This document shows positions 22,733-44,752 of a DNA stretch of 64,000 nt, piece by piece. This DNA comes from an uncultured candidatus Brocadiaceae bacterium. GTDB lineage: Bacteria > Planctomycetota > Brocadiia > SM23-32. The stretch spans positions 9,422 to 73,421 of the forward strand of contig CAYVBE010000001.1 in the NCBI GenBank assembly GCA_964448935.1, given 5' to 3'. Made by a program: the position numbers and the translations under genes. The number at the start of each line of letters is the position of its first letter. The stretch's first letter is position 1. The notes under the pieces are model-generated. The model worked only from the letters and a program-made list of their open reading frames with translations, made no database searches and was not told where the DNA came from.

Positions 22733-23790
22733 GTTTTCTGTGGCATTACAGTAAGTACGCGGCCTGCGTCGGCGTGGCTTTTGCCGCGCTCCTGGCGCTG
22801 GGGGCCGGCGAGCCGGCGCCGGACGAGGACTCCCTGAAGCAATACGAGGAAAAGACCGACCGGGCCGTTGATCTGGGCCTGAAGTTCCTGGCCTCACAGC
22901 AGCAGAACGACGGCGCCTTCCGGGGCAAATGGACCCACAACACCGGCATTGCTTCACTCTGCGTGATGGCGTTCCTCGCCGGGGGCTACACGCCGGGCAC
23001 CGGTCCGCACGGGGAGACCATCAACAAGGGCATTGATTACGTGCTGAGCGCCCAGAACAAGGACGGCATGATCCTGGGGCGCCAGAAGAGCCACGGGGGC
23101 ATGTACAGCCACTCCATCTCCACTCTGCTGCTCTCCGAGGTGTCGGGCATGGTGGATGGGGAGCGGCAGAAGAAGATTGACGAAGCATTGCCCAGGGCTC
23201 TGCACATCATCCTGTCGGCGCAGAAACTCGACAAGAACAATCGGTTCGACGGCGGGTGGCGCTATAACTCCAACAGCCGCGACAGCGACATCTCCTGCAC
23301 CGGCTGGCCTTTGATGGCGCTGCGGTCGGCGCGCAACAACGGCGCAGCGGTCCCGAAGGACGCCATCGAGAACGGCCTGAAATTCGTGCTGAACTGCCGC
23401 AGCGGTGATGGCGGGTTCGCCTATCAGCCGGGCAGAGGTTCGGGAGTGGCCAGGACGGGCACCGCGCTGCTGTGCCTTGAGCTCTGTGGCATGCACGAGA
23501 GCAAGGAGGCGCAAGGGGCGGCCGAATACCTGCTCAAACACGGGCACGACAATAGCTGGTTCTACTACGGCATCTACTACTGCGCGCAGGGCATGTACCA
23601 GCTCGGCGGCCGCTACTGGCAGGAGTACGGCCCGTCCATCTTCAAGACGCTTCTGGACAGGCAGAACGATGAGGGCTCCTGGCCGGACAACTCGGGCGGC
23701 GGGGGCCGCGCCGGCAAGAGCTACTCCACCGCCATGTCCGTCCTCGCCCTCAGCGTTCCCTACTGCCAGTTGCCCATCTACCAGCGCTGA
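22729..23790 (+). CDS. secreted prenyltransferase/squalene-oxidase (terpene-cyclase-like alpha/alpha-toroid) repeat protein, paralog 1
   Basis: Signal peptide, then repeated QxxDGGF/GGW motifs (QQQNDGAFRG, SAQNKDGMILG, NRFDGGWRYN, RSGDGGFAYQ, RQNDEGSWPD) characteristic of the SQHop-cyclase/prenyltransferase repeat fold. It is the last, translationally coupled gene of the MoxR/BatA operon. Confidence 0.8.
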   Translation: MSFLWHYSKYAACVGVAFAALLALGAGEPAPDEDSLKQYEEKTDRAVDLGLKFLASQQQNDGAFRGKWTHNTGIASLCVMAFLAGGYTPGTGPHGETINKGIDYVLSAQNKDGMILGRQKSHGGMYSHSISTLLLSEVSGMVDGERQKKIDEALPRALHIILSAQKLDKNNRFDGGWRYNSNSRDSDISCTGWPLMALRSARNNGAAVPKDAIENGLKFVLNCRSGDGGFAYQPGRGSGVARTGTALLCLELCGMHESKEAQGAAEYLLKHGHDNSWFYYGIYYCAQGMYQLGGRYWQEYGPSIFKTLLDRQNDEGSWPDNSGGGGRAGKSYSTAMSVLALSVPYCQLPIYQR

Positions 23791-28171: not shown

Positions 28172-29236
28172 ATGCAGCTCAGGGCCATGAGGCTCCTGTT
28201 CGTCTGCTGTCTGGCGATCGCAGTCGCTTCGTTGCCCGTCCTCGTCGCGGAAGAGGCAGCGGAGCCCGATGAGGACCCGCTGAAGGCATACCGGGAGAAG
28301 GTGGACCGTGCCGTTGACCGCGGACTGCAATTTCTGGTCGAGCGGCAGCGGGAGGACGGTGCTTTCCGGACCGACTGGAACGACAACACCGCCGTCGTCT
28401 CCCTGTGCGTTATGGCTTTCCTTGCCAGGGGCTACACTCCGGGCGTTGGTCCCCACGGAGATGTTATCAACAGAGGCCTTGATTACGTTCTGGGCTGCCA
28501 GAAGGAAAGCGGCATGATCGTGGGCTCAAAGAAGCAGCGCGGGGGCATGTACAGCCACTCCATCTCCACCCTTATGCTCTCCGAGGTCTCCGGCATGGTG
28601 GACATGGAGCGGCAGAAGAAGATTGACGAGGTGCTGCCCGAGGCCCTGCAGGTGATCCTTTCCGCCCAGAAGGTCAACAAAAACCAGCAATATGCGGGCG
28701 GCTGGCGCTACAACTCCAACAGCCGCGACAGCGACATCTCCTGCACCGGCTGGCCGCTTATGGCGTTGCGCTCGGCGCGTAACAACGGCGCCGCCGTTCC
28801 GGAGGACGCCACCAAGAAAGGGTTGGGGTTCGTTTTAAGGTGCCGTAAAGGCGACGGCGGTTTCGCCTACCAGCCCCACCGTAATTCCGGCGTTGCCAGG
28901 ACGGGCACCGCCTTGCTTTGCCTTGAACTGTGCGGGATGCACGAGAGCGAGGAGGCCGTCGGGGCGGCCGAGTACCTGCTTGAACAGCGGCACGACGGCA
29001 AGTGGTTCTATTACGGGGTATACTACTGTGCACAGGGCATGTACCAGATCGGCGGCCGCTACTGGCGGGAATATGGGGTTTCCCTGTTCAAGACTCTTCT
29101 TGAAAGGCAGAATGATGACGGCTCGTGGCCGGCCAACAGAGGCGGCGGCGGGCGTGCAGGCAAGGCGTATTCCACCGCCATGGCCGTGCTGGCGCTCAGT
29201 GTGCCCTACTGCCAGTTGCCCATCTACCAGCGCTAA
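28172..29236 (+). CDS. secreted prenyltransferase/squalene-oxidase repeat protein, paralog 2
   Basis: Signal peptide plus the same repeat architecture as 22729..23790. It is about 75% aa identity to paralog 1, with long stretches of near-identical DNA (for example ...aactccaacagccgcgacagcgacatctcctgcaccggctggcc... and the shared 3' end ccctactgccagttgcccatctaccagcgc). Confidence 0.8.
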   Translation: MQLRAMRLLFVCCLAIAVASLPVLVAEEAAEPDEDPLKAYREKVDRAVDRGLQFLVERQREDGAFRTDWNDNTAVVSLCVMAFLARGYTPGVGPHGDVINRGLDYVLGCQKESGMIVGSKKQRGGMYSHSISTLMLSEVSGMVDMERQKKIDEVLPEALQVILSAQKVNKNQQYAGGWRYNSNSRDSDISCTGWPLMALRSARNNGAAVPEDATKKGLGFVLRCRKGDGGFAYQPHRNSGVARTGTALLCLELCGMHESEEAVGAAEYLLEQRHDGKWFYYGVYYCAQGMYQIGGRYWREYGVSLFKTLLERQNDDGSWPANRGGGGRAGKAYSTAMAVLALSVPYCQLPIYQR

Positions 29237-36354: not shown

Positions 36355-36481
36355 CGGCGCGAACAAAACCGGGATTCAGGACCACTAAGTCCTGTGAAGA
36401 TTGCCTGAGAAGAGGTGTGCCATCCGCAAGCGACCGTCGGTCATCGCTCGCATGTGCCATACAAAGCGCAGAAAGGGAGTT

Positions 36482-39400
36482 ATGATGCATAAGCAAGGCA
36501 GGAGGGCGAGTTCCTGTTTCCTTTCCGTTCTCATCGGTCTGTTTGTGTTCCTTCTGGCGCAGGGAGGGCCTTCATTCTCCGCCTATGTGGAGCGCCCCAA
36601 TCCCAGGCCTTCTTCGGCGATAGCCCTTTTTGGCGATCATAGCCGAGAATTCGAGTGGTACGATACCAACAACCCCCCAGACACCGAATACCGAGTTGGT
36701 GTGAGTGAGTTGGGCGGAGGATCGGGAGTCTGGGGTTTTTACAAGATCAGCCAGACGAAGTCAACGCCGGCCGGGGAGACCGATGGACCTTTCACGGCGA
36801 ACTGCCAGAATTTCTTGATTGGAATTTCGAGGGAATGGCCCTGGCAGAGCCCTGACCTTCCGGGTGACCCGAGGGTGGTGCCGGAGGGAGAGCCCGATCC
36901 CGACGGTGAGGACTTCTACACGGGCATGTTGCCGAACTTCACTTATGCCTGGCAGGTTCAGACGAGAGCGCCGGGAGGAGACTGGGAGGAGGGTCGCCAG
37001 TGGGTGGTTCATACCCCGATAGCGAAGCCCGGAATGAATTTTGATCCATCTCCTCACGGTGCTCTCAGCGTGGGCGTGTATCCGCGTTTTGTGTGGAGTG
37101 AGCATCCGCATCTGCCGGACTTTCCCCAGGCGAAAGTCCTGCTGGTGGATCTGGACGAGGGTGACCCTAATTATAGCAAAGGTTGGGTTGATAACGATGG
37201 CAATATCAACGAGGATAGGGTTGTAAAGACCTACGCCCCCAATGACGGGGATGCGCCTGCTATTGACAAGATCCGAGAGTTCTGGCACTTCGACGAGAAC
37301 TGGCAGCGCCTGTTGCCGAATCGCAACTACGCATGGCGGATAGTCTATTGCGACGACGAGGGGAATGCTTTGTTCGACGACAGGGAGCAGCCGGGTGAGG
37401 ACCCGGAAGACCCTCCCGAAGATCCGAACGACCAGAAGGATGCCGGAGAGCCTTACCTGTGGGCAGACGGCGGTGGGGACACCGCGGATGGCTGGCAATT
37501 CAGGACTGTCGGAGAGATTACCAGTGCGGAGTTGAACAGCCCAAACACGAGATCGCTGATAATCTATTGGCAGAGCATGTACGGTACACTGGACCCGGAC
37601 CCGTGGGAGGGGGATTTCACCTTCGCGAGCGTGGCCGAAGATATTGAGTACATTCATGAGCAGATCCACGATCCTGCCATTTCAACGGCCATCGTAGGGA
37701 CACAAGAGGTGACCGCGTCCTACGGAGGGCTGCACAACGATGATGCCAGACGTGCGAACTGTACCGATCAGGCGCCCTGGCCGGACGAAATAACAGGGTT
37801 CGAAGGTTGGTACACGATGGGGCGAAGCGCTCGGAACAATGCGGGAATGGACCCGGGGCCCACCCACGTGCGCGGGACGCAAGACCGCTACAGGGAATGG
37901 ACAGCACGGGGCATACGGACGCTGTTGCAGGACACGACCAACAAAACGGGCTTTGGCGGTATCAGTGACCGTGCGTATGCGGAGCACCTGGAGCAGGTGA
38001 CTCTCCTGGGTGACGCGGACCATGTTGCGCCAAGCTTCTATCACCATTACCAGATTGGGTCGGCCCACAAGTGGGTGGGAACGGATTTCTTCTACTCCAC
38101 TCAGAACGACACGTCCGCTGTGGAGCTACACCCCGCCTTCCAAGTTAGCCGAATTCCCTTGCAGCAGAAGAGCGAAGACAATTACCGCACCTATGAGGCT
38201 TCTTTTGCTGACCCGCGAACTACGGTCGGTCGGGCTTACGCGGATCCAGAACCTGTTGTCGAGAAAATCTGGGATTTTTCCGCCATCCTGAGTGAAAGCC
38301 ACACGGGAAATCCGGCGGCCAAGTCAGACGCTTATCAGGACTGGTTCGGCCGTGCGGTGGTTGTGGCAGGAGGGACGAATCTCTGGGAATGGTTCCAGTT
38401 TTTTCCCGCATTTGTGCAGAACCTGCTCAGTGGTCAGGTTGCTGCTGTTGGCGGACCACGTGATACATTCGCCGGTCTTAAAGTCAGGCAATACAACATG
38501 TGGGGAGCTGGCGAAGAAGCGCTTAGCCCTGCCAACGTGCTACGGCATCTGACCAAACCGGAGGCCGATGCTGTGCCCGGTTTTGTCTACTTGCTTGCTC
38601 ACGGCCAGGACTGGCAGGATCTTGGTGATCAGACAGTGCTCGATCCCTTCGGCCAGGTTATCGAAGACAATGACTTCGACCGAACCTGGGATGCTCCTCA
38701 CGGGAGGCGTCCTTTGCTCATATCGGCTGCTGGCCAAAACAATCGGTTCGACACCCATCTATGGGGTTCCAATGAGCCCTGGACGTCTCTGGGAGAGGCC
38801 GCATGTCTGGCGCGAGGTGGGCCTATTGGAATCATTGGTTTTGCAAGCGCGGATTACTGGGAGTCGGCCGAACACAGCAAAACGTATCCAGACGGTGGAA
38901 CAACCAGCCGTAGTTTCCGCAGCAGCGGTGTGGACGACATCGAAGGACATGTCTGGCCAGACATAGACCAGGGCCAGGTGTCACTTGCGGCTGCCAGCGA
39001 TCCGGCTTCGCCACTGCGCGGCAAGATTGAACTGATAAAGCTCATAGCCGAGCGATATCAGAGTAGCACAAACCCGGGTATCGGGGACGTTCTCAACAAC
39101 GCTCTTGCAGAATATGTGGAAGCGCACGCCACTGAGCTTGAAAACGCTGACGACCAGTCTGTGGTTACAACTGTCTTTGGCGCTTGCTTGTTAGGCGATT
39201 CGGCGCTTTCGCTGCCCCCACGTCAACGACCCGACTTGGATAAAGCCCGGCCAGTAATCACGGATGAGAACCTCCGCTCTGTTGCTTCACCGAGTGGATA
39301 CGATGCGACTCCGGGTTATAATTCAGCAGGTATGCCAGTGCATGTCATCGCACGGTGGGATCCGGATACCGAAACTAACCCTGGCACGCCAGTAGAACTG

Positions 39401-42175
39401 ACCATTGAAACCGACGCCGACAACGTGCGCGTCCGCGTTATGACCCCGTTCGATTTCGGACTGGATGGGCAGTGGTATGATCCGACGACGGACCATTGGT
39501 CTGACACGGAGCCAGATCAGTACCTTGACAGTTCGAGCGGTTCGTGCAACTACACGTTTACGGCATTCAAGCCTTCCATCTACCTGATTGTGGTACAGGC
39601 TGAAAACCCTGCGTGGGACGGCACTGATCCCGATGATCCGTACCGCTGGCTGAAGGAAAGGTGGTTCTATGTCCAGGTGGTCAACGAGTTCGAACGCAAT
39701 CCGGATGCGAACATTCTTGTTGTGGATATGGATCAGCCGGACCGGTACTACCTCAACGGACACGGGACATTTTACTCCCATGTCGAGGACTATTATGTAA
39801 ATCTGCAGGACATAAACGATTTGGACGGATTCAACTCTGGTGACAACGGCGAGGTCGATCCGAGAACTCTCACAGAGCAACCGGCACTGCCCATACTCAA
39901 CTACCTTACGGGGCAAAACGGGCCCGGGGCTCCCTGGCCTTGGGATTACGGATACCAGTACTGGTGTACGCAGGTGTACCATACGCTCCAGCCAAATGCC
40001 CAGGCGATTCTGGATGGCCAGAGATACTATGGCGATCTGACACCGTCCGCGATCGAGTCGTTCAGGGACACATACGGTCCATTGGTGGTGTTTACCGGCG
40101 ACTCAATCGTTTCCCGTGGTGGCGCGCTAATCTCATTCCCGCACCGTTACCTTTTCCTCTATAATTCCATGCCATTTCCGGACGTAAACTTCCTCCAGAA
40201 CTTTCTCGAAATGGGCGGGAAGCTGTTCGTCACTAATCAGACCCTGTCGAACGAGACCGACAATGTTCCGTATCTCGCTACATTCCAGGAGGACTTCCTT
40301 GGTGCCGTAACCGCCACGGAAGACTCGGATTACAGCAACATGGAGGGCCTATTCGACGACACCATGAGCAAGCTCATTCAGGACCTGGAGATCGAAGGTG
40401 GGAACGGGGAAAGCAACACCATAGTCAGCGCAGAGCTGGATCCTAACGGCACAGGGGCTGCAACCGTTTTCATCTGGGATGAACAAGCAGGTGGTGGTGA
40501 ACTGAACAGCAGCAAATCAGCGGCTATCCACAACCGCCTCATTGCCAACGCCGCGCGAACACTCTACTTCCCATGGCCTTTCGAGTCTATCGACCATGCG
40601 CTCCAGGGAAATACGCTGGACTTCTCTGGCCGGGTCAATGTGATGAAGCAGGCATTGGAATGGTTGCAAAGCGTTGCCGCAGCCGGTAACCCCATCCCTG
40701 CTAACGGCGCAGTGGATGTTCCGTTGAATATTACCTTCGAGTGGAGTGAAGTGACAGAGTCCGACGGGTACGAGGTGTATTTTGCCGAAAGCGGCCAGGC
40801 GTTGACACTGGTGGCCGACATAACCAATACGGCAGACAATGACCTGGGTCCCGGTGATGCGGGTTACCCTGGTCCCCTGACAGCTGACACTCAGTATGTC
40901 TGGCGCGTGGCCACCAAGAATCCCGGTGGCGGCACCACTACACCGGATACCTTATGGCAGTTCCGGACCGTCAGCCTCACGGCCAGTAATCCGAATCCGC
41001 CGGACGGTGCGACCGGTGTCAGCCCGGCCGTAACGCTTTCGTGGAGTGGAGCGGTCGATCTGACTGATCCCGCGGAAGTGTACGAAGTTTACCTGTGGGA
41101 GGACGGCGATCAGATACAATTGGTGGACACCATAGCCGACGCCACGGAGTACACACCTCCGGCGCCACTGGCTGAGGGCATTTTGTACAATTGGCGCGTG
41201 GACAGTGTGATAGACGGAATGAACTATGAGGGTGACCCGTGGGAGTTCGAGACTGCGACGGCCGACCAGGCGTTCAACCCCGACCCGGTTGATGGTGCAA
41301 CGGGTGTGCCTGTGGACAAGACACTATCCTGGTCTGGTCCGCCCACTGCGCAGACTTACGATGTCTTTCTCGGCCAGGGGAGCCTGCCCGGAACGCCCAC
41401 GGTGTCCGGTCTGAACACGCCACAGTTCGATCCACCGACGGACCTGACCGAGGGGGCGACATACGTATGGAGGGTGGATGTGAACCACACACCTGCCAGC
41501 GGCCTGGGCACGGTACAGGGGCTCGAATGGACGTTTACTGTAGAGACAGCGGGTGCCGCATCGAACCCCGTGCCCGCTGACGGCGCCAACGGTGTCTCGT
41601 TGATTACACTTCTTTCGTGGCTGGGTCAGGCGGATAGCTACGACATCTACTTCGGCGCCGGCAGCCTGCCGGGCACGCCTAACCAGACCGGGCTCACCGT
41701 CAACTTCTGGTATCCGGGCCAGCTTACGGCCAACACGACTTATGTCTGGCGCGTTGACAGCCACATCGGCGCCAGTACAGTGATCGGCGCCGTTTGGACC
41801 TTTACCACGGGCACGCAGCAGCAGCCCGACGACGGTGGCGGCGGTGGTGGCGGCGGTGGCGGATGCTTCATTGCTACGTCTGCCATGGAGGGCGTTGCGC
41901 CTGCAGCCCCGGGTCTGGTGGAACGCAACTGCACCGGCGAGTACGTGCTGCCCGAAGACAGGGCACGGGGGCTGGAGCTTATCCGCGGCCTGCGGGACGA
42001 CCTGCTGATGCGGGCGAAGCCCGGCCGACAGTTCAGCGCCTGGTACTACGCCTTCGGGCCCTACGCCGCCGAGGCAATACGCCACCGCGAGCCGGCCAAG
42101 GCCGTGGTGCGCGGCGTGCTGCTGCGGCCTCTGGCGGGACTGTCCGAAGACTGCCTGACAAGGGAGCAGGAGTAG
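36482..42175 (+). CDS. giant secreted multidomain protein (about 1,900 aa) with a gingipain-like (peptidase C25-like) cysteine-protease region, tandem Fn3-like repeats, poly-Gly linker and a C-terminal CFIATSA-motif domain
   Basis: Signal peptide MMHKQGRRASSCFLSVLIGLFVFLLAQG. The central region has a His...Cys arrangement (VYLLAHGQDW ... EAACLARGGPIGIIGF) and a GDADHV segment reminiscent of clostripain/gingipain-type proteases (tentative). There are four to five ~95-aa repeats (NPxPxDGATGV...LSWSG...Y[DE]VY[FL]G...TY[VN]WRVD...W[ET]F[TR]T). G10 is followed by CFIATSAMEG.... The gene has lower GC than its flanks. Confidence 0.7.
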   Translation: MMHKQGRRASSCFLSVLIGLFVFLLAQGGPSFSAYVERPNPRPSSAIALFGDHSREFEWYDTNNPPDTEYRVGVSELGGGSGVWGFYKISQTKSTPAGETDGPFTANCQNFLIGISREWPWQSPDLPGDPRVVPEGEPDPDGEDFYTGMLPNFTYAWQVQTRAPGGDWEEGRQWVVHTPIAKPGMNFDPSPHGALSVGVYPRFVWSEHPHLPDFPQAKVLLVDLDEGDPNYSKGWVDNDGNINEDRVVKTYAPNDGDAPAIDKIREFWHFDENWQRLLPNRNYAWRIVYCDDEGNALFDDREQPGEDPEDPPEDPNDQKDAGEPYLWADGGGDTADGWQFRTVGEITSAELNSPNTRSLIIYWQSMYGTLDPDPWEGDFTFASVAEDIEYIHEQIHDPAISTAIVGTQEVTASYGGLHNDDARRANCTDQAPWPDEITGFEGWYTMGRSARNNAGMDPGPTHVRGTQDRYREWTARGIRTLLQDTTNKTGFGGISDRAYAEHLEQVTLLGDADHVAPSFYHHYQIGSAHKWVGTDFFYSTQNDTSAVELHPAFQVSRIPLQQKSEDNYRTYEASFADPRTTVGRAYADPEPVVEKIWDFSAILSESHTGNPAAKSDAYQDWFGRAVVVAGGTNLWEWFQFFPAFVQNLLSGQVAAVGGPRDTFAGLKVRQYNMWGAGEEALSPANVLRHLTKPEADAVPGFVYLLAHGQDWQDLGDQTVLDPFGQVIEDNDFDRTWDAPHGRRPLLISAAGQNNRFDTHLWGSNEPWTSLGEAACLARGGPIGIIGFASADYWESAEHSKTYPDGGTTSRSFRSSGVDDIEGHVWPDIDQGQVSLAAASDPASPLRGKIELIKLIAERYQSSTNPGIGDVLNNALAEYVEAHATELENADDQSVVTTVFGACLLGDSALSLPPRQRPDLDKARPVITDENLRSVASPSGYDATPGYNSAGMPVHVIARWDPDTETNPGTPVELTIETDADNVRVRVMTPFDFGLDGQWYDPTTDHWSDTEPDQYLDSSSGSCNYTFTAFKPSIYLIVVQAENPAWDGTDPDDPYRWLKERWFYVQVVNEFERNPDANILVVDMDQPDRYYLNGHGTFYSHVEDYYVNLQDINDLDGFNSGDNGEVDPRTLTEQPALPILNYLTGQNGPGAPWPWDYGYQYWCTQVYHTLQPNAQAILDGQRYYGDLTPSAIESFRDTYGPLVVFTGDSIVSRGGALISFPHRYLFLYNSMPFPDVNFLQNFLEMGGKLFVTNQTLSNETDNVPYLATFQEDFLGAVTATEDSDYSNMEGLFDDTMSKLIQDLEIEGGNGESNTIVSAELDPNGTGAATVFIWDEQAGGGELNSSKSAAIHNRLIANAARTLYFPWPFESIDHALQGNTLDFSGRVNVMKQALEWLQSVAAAGNPIPANGAVDVPLNITFEWSEVTESDGYEVYFAESGQALTLVADITNTADNDLGPGDAGYPGPLTADTQYVWRVATKNPGGGTTTPDTLWQFRTVSLTASNPNPPDGATGVSPAVTLSWSGAVDLTDPAEVYEVYLWEDGDQIQLVDTIADATEYTPPAPLAEGILYNWRVDSVIDGMNYEGDPWEFETATADQAFNPDPVDGATGVPVDKTLSWSGPPTAQTYDVFLGQGSLPGTPTVSGLNTPQFDPPTDLTEGATYVWRVDVNHTPASGLGTVQGLEWTFTVETAGAASNPVPADGANGVSLITLLSWLGQADSYDIYFGAGSLPGTPNQTGLTVNFWYPGQLTANTTYVWRVDSHIGASTVIGAVWTFTTGTQQQPDDGGGGGGGGGGCFIATSAMEGVAPAAPGLVERNCTGEYVLPEDRARGLELIRGLRDDLLMRAKPGRQFSAWYYAFGPYAAEAIRHREPAKAVVRGVLLRPLAGLSEDCLTREQE
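40688..41850 (+). repeat. tandem Fn3-like domain repeats within the giant protein (protein-level; DNA diverged)
   Basis: The four to five consecutive ~95-aa units listed above. The motif is shared at about 35-45% aa identity. Confidence 0.65.
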
Positions 42176-42179
42176 GAAG

Positions 42180-43178
42180 ATGTTCGGCAGACGCAGGGCA
42201 CTTCTGAGGCGACTGCTGACCGCGGCCTCCATACTGCTGGCCGTTGGCACGGGCGGGGCTGCCTACCTGGCCTTCTTCCGCGCATCCGACACTACGCAAC
42301 TCACCCGACCATCGGCCGATTCGGGAATGAAGTCCCGGCAGTCGGCCGATGCACCGTCCGAGGACCGCGACCTGTCCGTGCTGTGGGAGGGGCGCGACGC
42401 GCAGAAGTCCGTCGTCCCCCCGCCGATGGGGGGAGCCCTGGATGGTGAGGCGGAACGTGAGCGGGTGCCCTTCAAGCTGCGTGGGGTTATCTACTCCGGC
42501 GCGGGGGATTCCGTGGCCTTCGTCGAGGTAGGAGACCAACTGCGGCTGCTCGGGCCGGACTCCGAGCTGCAGGGCTGGAAGGTAGCCGCCATCCATCCTC
42601 GGTCCATGGTGCTCAAGCGGGACGACGCCGAGTTCAGCATCTCCATCGAGAGCCTGTCTGTGACCGAACGGCCCGTGGCCGACCTGACCGCGGGCGACGG
42701 GGCGGCGGACACTGAGGCAACCGAAGACGCGGCCAATGTGGAGAGGAGCGTGGTGACCGCAGGAACTGACTCCGAGGGGGTTGCCGACATCCGGGAAACC
42801 GCCGAGGTAAGCAGTCGGGAACGGGAGTACTCACCGCCGCCTTTGCAGGGGGCGGAGGCGCGGGTGCGCGTGCCAAAAGACCTTGTCGAGAAGGTGCGGG
42901 AGGACCCGCGCAGCGTCGAGTACGGCGTGCGCTATAGCTGGCAGCTCAGCCCGAACGGGAAGATAGCCGGCTACAGCATAGACAAGGTCGAGCCCGGCTC
43001 GCTGGCCGCCCGCTACGGCCTGGCCCCGGGGGACCGCGTGCTGGCCGTTAACGGCGTCCCGCTGGACACTCCGACCCGCGCGCTGGAACTCTACCGGCGT
43101 TACCGCAATTCCGATTCCGCCAGGGTTACCATCAACCGCCACGGGGAAACCAAAGACGTGCTCTTCTACGTGCGGTAG
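42180..43178 (+). CDS. gspC: GspC-like protein (N-terminal TM anchor, central Ala/Glu-rich region, C-terminal PDZ domain)
   Basis: MFGRRRALLRRLLTAASILLAVGTGGAAYLAFF is the TM helix. The C-terminal ...GYSIDKVEPGSLAARYGLAPGDRVLAVNGVPLDTPTRALELYRRYRNSDSARVTI is a PDZ fold. It starts 5 bp after the giant gene stop and faces the T2SS cluster. Confidence 0.55.
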   Translation: MFGRRRALLRRLLTAASILLAVGTGGAAYLAFFRASDTTQLTRPSADSGMKSRQSADAPSEDRDLSVLWEGRDAQKSVVPPPMGGALDGEAERERVPFKLRGVIYSGAGDSVAFVEVGDQLRLLGPDSELQGWKVAAIHPRSMVLKRDDAEFSISIESLSVTERPVADLTAGDGAADTEATEDAANVERSVVTAGTDSEGVADIRETAEVSSREREYSPPPLQGAEARVRVPKDLVEKVREDPRSVEYGVRYSWQLSPNGKIAGYSIDKVEPGSLAARYGLAPGDRVLAVNGVPLDTPTRALELYRRYRNSDSARVTINRHGETKDVLFYVR

Positions 43179-43183
43179 AACGG

Positions 43184-43205
43184 CCTCAGCCGCCCCCGGC
43201 TGAGG
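43184..43205 (+). terminator. hairpin directly 3' of the gspC-like stop
   Basis: cctcagcc-gccccc-ggctgagg is a perfect 8-bp stem starting 6 nt after the TAG. No U-tract follows. Confidence 0.45.
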
Positions 43206-43695
43206 TACGGGCGGTTCGTGCAGCGCGCACGGTTGATGTGTAGCGCAGCCACCCGCGGCGGCGAAAACGGATGCATGCGGAAGCCGCGGTCGGGATCGTT
43301 TCGCCTGAAAGGCGTAAACATATCAGCCCAGGGCAGAGCCCGCAGGGCGTCGCCCTGGGAACCGTGGCCGTTCCAATTGGTAGCCCTGACAGGGCGGAAC
43401 CCGGCTCTTCAATCCTCCCGTCCCTGGTGGTGAAGACGAAGGGCGGGAACGGGCACGGATAATGACGGACGCGTGTTGGCCTACTGATGTGCCGCCCTTT
43501 CAGGGCTCGATTTTCCTTCTGCGTTTCTACCCAGGGCTGCTAAAGCAGCTGGAAGAACGCTCGGCGTTCTTCATGGGACCGAGTGGCACATGAATGCCCT
43601 TCGGTCCCCGCTGCGCCCTTCGGGCTCTGCCCCGGGCTTTTATATCGCGCCCTTTCAGGGCGCCATTTACGAACGTTCTCGGTTGGTCAGGCTAA

Positions 43696-43949
43696 CCCGG
43701 ATATTTCACGAGAGTTTTCCGTCCAGCGGACGTTTTTGCCCTCATGCGGCGCCCTCCGCGCTCGCCTGTCCTCGACGTGCCTTATGGCACGCCTGCGGTA
43801 GCTCGCTTGTGCGGGCTTGCCTGAGAGCAAAACCGTCGCCCTGGTGCGTACACAGGGTGTTGCTTGTGGCTGGCCGGTTTTTTTGCTGTAAGATGCGTTC
43901 CTTTAGACAGTTGCGTGCGGTCCCGAAAAACTCTCGTGAAATATCCGGG
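43696..43949. mobile_element. MITE-like non-autonomous element: 254 bp bounded by 23-bp perfect terminal inverted repeats and flanked by CTAA direct repeats
   Basis: Left end cccggatatttcacgagagtttt (43696-43718) is the exact reverse complement of the right end aaaactctcgtgaaatatccggg (43927-43949). CTAA occurs immediately outside both ends (43692-95 and 43950-53), which fits the YTAR 4-bp target duplication typical of IS5-family transposition. The interior has no credible ORF and contains a T7 run. Confidence 0.55.
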
Positions 43950-44077
43950 CTAAACGCCTACGCCCGAACTCGGGGGACCACCGGGCCAGGCTGCGACCCT
44001 TCTCGGTTGACCACGCTGCACGCCTGAGAAGCATCCTTCCCGGTTTGCGCGGTCCGCGCAAGCGCTCGGTGCCGGCC

Positions 44078-44752
44078 CTACTCCTGCACGGCCTCATCGG
44101 GCAGCTTTGGGCGCGGGTCCACGGTGCGGTCTGCCAGGGGCATGGCGATGCACGTGGGGTGCGGCGGGTCGGCCTCGGGGTGCAGGGCCAGCTCCATCCG
44201 CACGGCTATTGGGGGCTTGTTGAGCGACCACTGCCGGCGCCACTCCGAGCCGTCGTAGCAGTCCACCAGCACGAAGGCCACCTCGTCCACCAGGCGCTGC
44301 TCCGCCGCGTGGCGCCAGTCCGGGCTGGAGCCCGGCTCGTAGGGCGTCTGCTGGCGCAGAAGCTCGTAGCCTTCCGCCTCCTCGTCGCGCGGGCGCAGGA
44401 GGTATCGGACGCGCTGCACGTCGGGCGGGGCATCCGAATGGGGCAGGGCGGACAGGGTCGTCAGTTCAAGGACCGTCCCGCCGTCCGTGGGAAACTCGGG
44501 CGGCACCACCACCGGCGGGAGTTGCTCGTCGGGAATCGGCACGAGGGCCTCCACGTCCCACCGCAGAATGCGCGCCACGCCGTAGCCCAGGCGTGCACGG
44601 CGCAGCGTCTGCCGGGAGCGCTGCATACCGCGGACCGTCAGCCGAAGAACGCCCGAGACGGTTACCATGAGCAGGGCGGTGATCGCCAGCGCACAGATGA
44701 CCTCCATGAGCGTGAAACGCCAGCGGGGCGCACCGTGGTGGGAGGCGTTCAC
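44078..44752 (-). CDS. gspJ: type II secretion minor pseudopilin, GspJ-like
   Basis: N-terminal prepilin-type segment APRWRFTLMEVICALAITALLMV (Glu+5 present, Gly-1 replaced by Arg). It is 224 aa and the last gene of the pseudopilin run. Confidence 0.6.
   Translation of the reverse strand: MNASHHGAPRWRFTLMEVICALAITALLMVTVSGVLRLTVRGMQRSRQTLRRARLGYGVARILRWDVEALVPIPDEQLPPVVVPPEFPTDGGTVLELTTLSALPHSDAPPDVQRVRYLLRPRDEEAEGYELLRQQTPYEPGSSPDWRHAAEQRLVDEVAFVLVDCYDGSEWRRQWSLNKPPIAVRMELALHPEADPPHPTCIAMPLADRTVDPRPKLPDEAVQE

Follow-up and report, generated by a model that had tools for sequence, protein, structure and literature searches.

A question raised by the type II secretion locus in the 64,000-nt stretch of Brocadiaceae DNA analysed here (hereafter the window) is what a 254-bp segment with perfect terminal inverted repeats (TIRs), lying between two of its genes, represents and to which family of mobile DNA its ends belong. 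The segment sits in an 899-bp spacer (43179–44077) bordered by two convergent genes. The gene to its left (42180–43178, plus strand) encodes a GspC-like PDZ protein, for which the best NCBIfam matches are GspC models, albeit below their cutoff (79 bits vs. 150). The gene to its right (44078–44752, minus strand) encodes a GspJ-like minor pseudopilin, with GspI-, GspH-, GspF- and GspE-like genes located further upstream. The element is found 517 bp past the stop codon of the GspC-like gene and 124 bp past that of gspJ, and the first-pass annotation was right to place it between convergent secretion genes. A protein of 1924 aa, weakly matching fn3 and Big_5, is encoded 4 nt before the GspC-like PDZ protein (window 36401–43178 for the two together). 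The related loci L030–L033 have this pair in synteny with the T2SS operon, which suggests that the large protein is a secretion substrate or the product of a T2SS-linked accessory gene. Elsewhere in the window, a 300-nt direct repeat with 73% identity was detected in two copies 5.4 kb apart (22814–23113 and 28260–28559), presumably representing paralogous coding sequence.

The element occupies positions 43696–43949. Its left TIR, CCCGGATATTTCACGAGAGTTTT, was read from the sequence at 43696–43718 on the plus strand, and the exact reverse complement at 43927–43949 on the minus strand. The pair is perfect over 23 nt and was extended by the repeat finder to 29 nt with two mismatches (43693–43721/43924–43952; 93%). 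The tetranucleotide CTAA abuts both ends, at 43692–43695 and 43950–43953 (both copies read from the sequence as well), forming the target-site duplication. The flanks themselves are the two halves of an interrupted host spacer repeat, the left half, CGAACGTTCTCGGTTGGTCAGGCTAA, at 43670–43695 on the plus strand and the right half, ACGCCTACGCCCGAA, at 43954–43968. The 23-mer had no further match in the 64-kb window with up to three mismatches allowed and did not occur once in 100 dinucleotide-preserving shuffles, its chance expectation being approximately zero. A search of the window with the 14-nt core, also at ≤3 mismatches, returned both element ends plus one match at the chance-expected level and nothing else. 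Moreover, this TIR pair is the sole short-range near-perfect inverted repeat among all those present in the 64 kb. The 23-bp perfect repeats with flanking CTAA, as previously described, are therefore exact in their coordinates, unique in the window and absent from the shuffled sequences.

The 208 bp enclosed by the TIRs (43719–43926) are non-coding, in agreement with the earlier description, and gave no DNA, protein or Rfam match. The GC content of the whole element is 0.59 vs. 0.66 for the window. The T7 run and the hairpins reported for the interior are present: the former is at 43878–43884, and a terminator-like hairpin followed by T5 was found by the terminator scan at 43720–43737 (a consensus match only). 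In addition, a nested imperfect inverted repeat is located at approximately 43730–43744/43822–43836, and the promoter scan returned no sigma-70-like sites. A 145-aa ORF runs through the element (43590–44027); it was searched so as to catch element copies annotated as ORFs elsewhere, and it had neither a Pfam match nor a homologue among 5.8 billion proteins. Likewise, tblastn with an IS1380 transposase revealed no IS1380-type transposase in the 64-kb window (best E 0.11). Both results agree with the proposal that the element is non-autonomous, having no transposase of its own. With a length of 254 bp and a perfect 23-nt TIR, it falls well within the size range of MITEs (under about 600 bp, with TIRs). 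Only one copy was found, both within the window and in all data searched: the interior matched nothing in the 55 loci retrieved, blastn against the plasmid collection gave no match, the 23-mer TIR had none in JGI metagenome contigs, and the terminal 19-mer had none in viral contigs. Related 19-mer ends do occur elsewhere (see below), and a second 254-bp copy was not found in the searched collections.

The affiliation of the element follows from its termini. Its outermost 19 nt, CCCGGATATTTCACGAGAG, recur unchanged at the left end of insertion sequences (ISs) of ~1570 bp in Rhodocyclales and other MAGs; exact scans with this 19-mer yielded 29 loci in a set with one genome per prokaryotic species and 19 metagenome loci. 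Five complete elements (L003, L011, L042, L051 and L053) are 1568–1572 bp long and contain one ORF of 437–448 aa each, with L003 being a 1570-bp contig running from terminus to terminus. The L003 protein (448 aa) matches Pfam DDE_Tnp_1_4 (E 1.5e-161) and the NCBIfam equivalog of the IS1380 family transposase, NF033539 (E 6.5e-125; 417 bits vs. the cutoff of 180), and the ORF of L011 is closely similar to it. The nearest annotated relative in the plasmid collection is ISPosp7 from plasmid NC_007950 of Polaromonas sp. JS666 (69% nucleotide identity over 69% of the query), which has the ends CCTGAATATTTCAC and GTGAAATATGCGGG with CTAG abutting each. As in members of the IS1380 family, the ends of the window element start with CC; the sequence CCCGGATATTTCAC is comparable to CCTGAATATTTCAC/CCCGCATATTTCAC of ISPosp7 and identical to L003 and L011. 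Because elements with an IS1380 transposase gene have identical ends, the termini mark the ISPosp7-like clade of IS1380 and not IS5. The IS5-family attribution made at first pass was consequently revised: the match over 19–20 nt is to ISs whose transposase, as scanned in L003, is recognised by DDE_Tnp_1_4 and NF033539, and this identity to the IRL of the IS1380 family links the MITE-like TIRs to an autonomous element able to supply the transposase.

The two ends of the full-length ISs differ from each other, with CCCGGATATTTCACGAGAG… on the left and CCCGGATATTTCACCAG… on the right. In the window element, the first 19–20 nt of the left TIR correspond to the IRL of the ISPosp7-like IS1380-family ISs (all five complete elements listed above), and the right TIR (…CACGAGAG) is also of the IRL type, not of the IRR type (…CACCAG) found in the full-length ISs. 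Both ends are thus of the left-end type, and similarity to the autonomous ISs is confined to the terminal 19–20 nt.

The target sites follow a clear rule. Among 47 independent ends, the four nucleotides just before the terminus were CTAG in 29, TTAG in 9, CTAA in 5, ATAG in 2, and CTAT and AATC in 1 each, whereby YTAR was present in 43 of the 47. Matched duplications were found around the complete elements L011, L042 and L051 (CTAG), L007 and L040 (CTAG), and L018 (CTAA). The sole exception among the complete elements with both flanks available was L044, a deletion derivative with CTAA/CTAG. The CTAA/CTAA pair in the window fits the YTAR rule exactly and has the 4-bp length of the duplications of this clade. 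That a YTAR site was duplicated over 4 bp, as proposed, is upheld by this pair, by the 43 of 47 YTAR ends and by the single CTAA in the relatives (see below). The interpretation of such a duplication as a hallmark exclusive to IS5 did not survive, since the IS1380 clade, including ISPosp7, makes the same duplication. YTAR duplications alone are therefore not diagnostic of IS5, and the family assignment is corrected here from IS5 to IS1380.

Relatives of the locus provided the state of the spacer in other strains. Exact-product look-ups of the window GspC-like and GspJ proteins and of P0001 gave no record, and four ENA metagenome contigs (L031–L034) were reached via members of the gspJ 90% cluster. 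Their gspJ and gspC-like genes are 95.9% and 94.9% identical to the window at the nucleotide level, and their spacers of 639–700 bp are without the element, being otherwise rearranged mosaics of short palindromic repeats. A true empty allele of the window site would read …GGTCAGGCTAA/ACGCCTACG…, with the slash marking the junction. When the two flanks of the element were fused with one CTAA between them, the resulting CGAACGTTCTCGGTTGGTCAGGCTAAACGCCTACGCCCGAA had a continuous match, CGAACCTTCTCGGTGGGCCACGCTAAACGCGTACCGCCCGAA, in all four contigs, extending across the junction with 36 of 42 positions identical (E 1.9e-7) and containing a single CTAA. CTAA is hence present on both sides of the element and once in the related uninterrupted site, as in a target duplication of a MITE. 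A second copy of the target repeat, uninterrupted but diverged, is present in the window itself at 43994–44017. In the more distant relative L030, whose GspJ is 61% identical, the spacer is only 99 bp long and also without the element.

Direct alignment of the spacers showed no clean empty site because they are rearranged: the global identity between the window and the close relatives was 51–52% in either orientation vs. 43% for shuffles, and only the local colinear blocks and the junction-spanning match are informative. The matching blocks are colinear and keep their spacing (window 43318 to 43670 vs. L031 6850 to 7201). Since window and relatives match on the same strand in these blocks but on opposite strands in the flanking genes, the spacer segment appears to be inverted between strains. 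In such a rapidly rearranging spacer, with order and orientation varying from strain to strain, the empty site in L031–L034 is called related to the window target and probably homologous, but not strictly orthologous. Contrary to what the first-pass annotation had named as telling against a mobile element, related TIRs exist elsewhere and the close relatives lack the element instead of carrying the same sequence; a single copy of it was found in the data searched.

The spacer between the gspC-like gene and gspJ has peculiarities of its own. In the window (43179–44077), in L031 (6676–7314) and in L032 (5330–6029), it is a mosaic of REP-like palindromes, and its length and content vary between strains with 95–96% identical flanking genes. 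The REP-like palindrome GCCCTTTCAGGGC occurs in the window at 43494 and 43649, arms of 46 nt are located at 43304–43349/43614–43659, and L032 has an extra tandem copy of a unit of ~61 nt (…CAGAAGAATGCCTCGCATTCTTCC…GCCCGAA…GGCCAG). A sub-threshold Rfam match to Acido-Lenti-1 RNA at 43631–43662 (25.4 bits vs. the gathering score of 37, E 0.0029) falls on one of the REP-like hairpins just upstream of the element. This spacer is a fast-evolving landing pad for repeats.

Overall, the segment 43696–43949 is very probably a 254-bp MITE with both ends being copies of the left TIR of an ISPosp7-like IS of the IS1380 family. For its mobilisation, an IS1380-family DDE transposase would be supplied in trans from a full-length copy in the genome, present or past, and would bind the CCCGGATATTTCAC… termini (~19 nt each). 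The element would then insert into CTAA in a REP-like repeat of the spacer, downstream of gspJ, and this tetranucleotide would be duplicated when the staggered cut was repaired. Mobilisation in trans and a partner transposase in the host genome are candidate features of this scheme, and an effect of the element on the transcription of the secretion genes, such as on termination or through antisense transcripts, is putative. A substrate with two left ends is plausible because of the tolerant end recognition of the IS1380 family, known from TMos and from one-ended mobilisation of the ISEcp1 type (PMC9330008). Both of these depend on the flexibility of the IS1380 transposase in the choice of ends, as the window element would. 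However, TMos retain the full IS plus neighbouring DNA, with a weak surrogate serving as the right end, whereas the window element has no IS and repeats its left end perfectly on the right.

The main alternative to a MITE, although an unlikely one, is a single-copy dead relic, for example two head-to-head IS left ends remaining after a deletion or rearrangement, never amplified and without an active partner. Such an origin would be in line with both ends being of the IRL type and with the 254-bp unit having been seen in one copy only in all searches, which covered 64 kb of the host genome. Moreover, the contig was assembled through the element, while a high-copy relative in Thermodesulfobacteriota breaks contigs. 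The perfect 23-nt TIRs together with the intact 4-bp duplication nevertheless imply that the unit was inserted as it is now built, and recently, and a single matching CTAA pair on the outside would not result from two head-to-head insertions. The dissimilarity of the interior to IS interiors also argues against a relic.

Much less probable is that the segment is a native part of the secretion locus, either as a structured non-coding RNA or as a bidirectional terminator. The whole element does fold far better than shuffles, with z-scores of −7.2 on the plus and −9.2 on the minus strand, and it has the hairpin followed by T5 at 43720–43737. But folding of the interior without the TIRs gave z-scores of only −0.74 (+) and −2.4 (−), so that the excess stems from the TIR stem. 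In the window, no match attained the gathering score of an Rfam family, with sub-threshold matches falling outside the element only, and neither the close relatives nor L030 (GspJ 61% identical, 99-bp spacer) have the element. An IS5-family-derived MITE, as initially proposed, is hardly credible and was rejected: 4-bp YTAR duplications are typical of the IS5 group, but the IS1380 clade makes them too, the TIRs are those of IS1380-encoding elements, no IS5-family element with these ends was present among the 48 loci from the terminus scans, and the complete elements that were scanned or read (L003 and L011) encode IS1380 transposases, the others being of the same size of 1568–1572 bp.

The same termini were also found on other small elements. 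Two further transposase-less elements of 168 bp have matching 4-bp duplications: one in a Rhodocyclaceae MAG (L007, 5991–6158) and a metagenome contig (L040, 630–797), flanked by CTAG/CTAG, and the other in a Desulfobacterales MAG (L018, 6257–6424), flanked by CTAA/CTAA. The L007/L040 element keeps IS positions 1–54 and 1411–1458 and is therefore an internal-deletion derivative of the IS. A larger deletion derivative of 1285 bp (L044, 192–1476) has the unequal flanks CTAA/CTAG, and a solitary left end with IS positions 1–115 is located directly beside an ammonium-transporter gene (L010, 4211–4325). The ISPosp7-like IS group thus yields small non-autonomous derivatives. The window element has the termini, the YTAR duplications and the absence of a transposase in common with the two 168-bp elements, but their interiors are unrelated, and while L007/L040 is recognisable as an IS deletion derivative, the window element is not.

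A different situation was encountered in the Thermodesulfobacteriota MAG CAYXRH01, in which 22 contig ends (L001, L004–L006, L008, L009, L012–L017, L019–L021 and L023–L029) stop inside this terminus, which always comes after CTAG or TTAG and continues into 29 nt common to all of them, CCTTAAATGAGACCTGATTGGCTGTTTTG. Such a pattern points to a high-copy element at which the assembly breaks, either a MITE with long terminal repeats or an IS. Since only one class of end was seen, its two ends must agree over at least 48 nt.

In comparison with the ISPosp7-like ISs (1570–1613 bp), the window element has in common the terminal CCYGNATATTTCAC, with 19–20 nt identical to the Rhodocyclales elements, and the YTAR duplication; it differs in its length of 254 bp, the lack of a transposase, the unrelated interior and the two IRL ends. 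PiggyBac elements have CCC… at their start and TTAA as their target, and the CCC terminus and xTAx target found here are reminiscent of them. For the window element and its kin, the resemblance would lie in the C-rich 5′ termini (CCC…GGG) and the strictly 4-bp target, xTAx. IS1380 transposases serve as the prokaryotic outgroup of piggyBac (PMC10813416). Among bacterial MITEs, MITEPye1 of Paracoccus yeei is mobilised by the IS1182 family (PMC11578231). The window element is like MITEPye1 in being small, intergenic and apparently of low copy number, with IS-matching TIRs, direct repeats, folding into a long hairpin and no transposase, but its parent family is IS1380, and no second copy of it is documented so far.

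No description of an IS1380-derived MITE was found among the papers listed by a full-text literature search, which, given its incomplete coverage, is weak evidence of novelty; ISPosp7 was not mentioned in the literature searched. With no such description found, annotators could add CCYGNATATTTCAC with YTAR flanks to repeat libraries. Three miniature elements with unrelated interiors (the window element, L007/L040 and L018) were seen in this analysis. It is a tentative suggestion that the ISPosp7-like clade of IS1380 repeatedly spawns MITEs in unrelated phyla and that these are the first IS1380-derived MITEs to be described. The window element itself is real but ordinary selfish DNA and changes no understanding of transposition or secretion. 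For the family, the analysis documents that miniature elements without a transposase have arisen from an IS1380 clade and are present in several phyla. If the reading proposed here is true, the IRL–IRL element would show that ~19 nt of a single type of end are enough for the transposase, and it could offer a minimal substrate for the study of a still-unknown transposition pathway.
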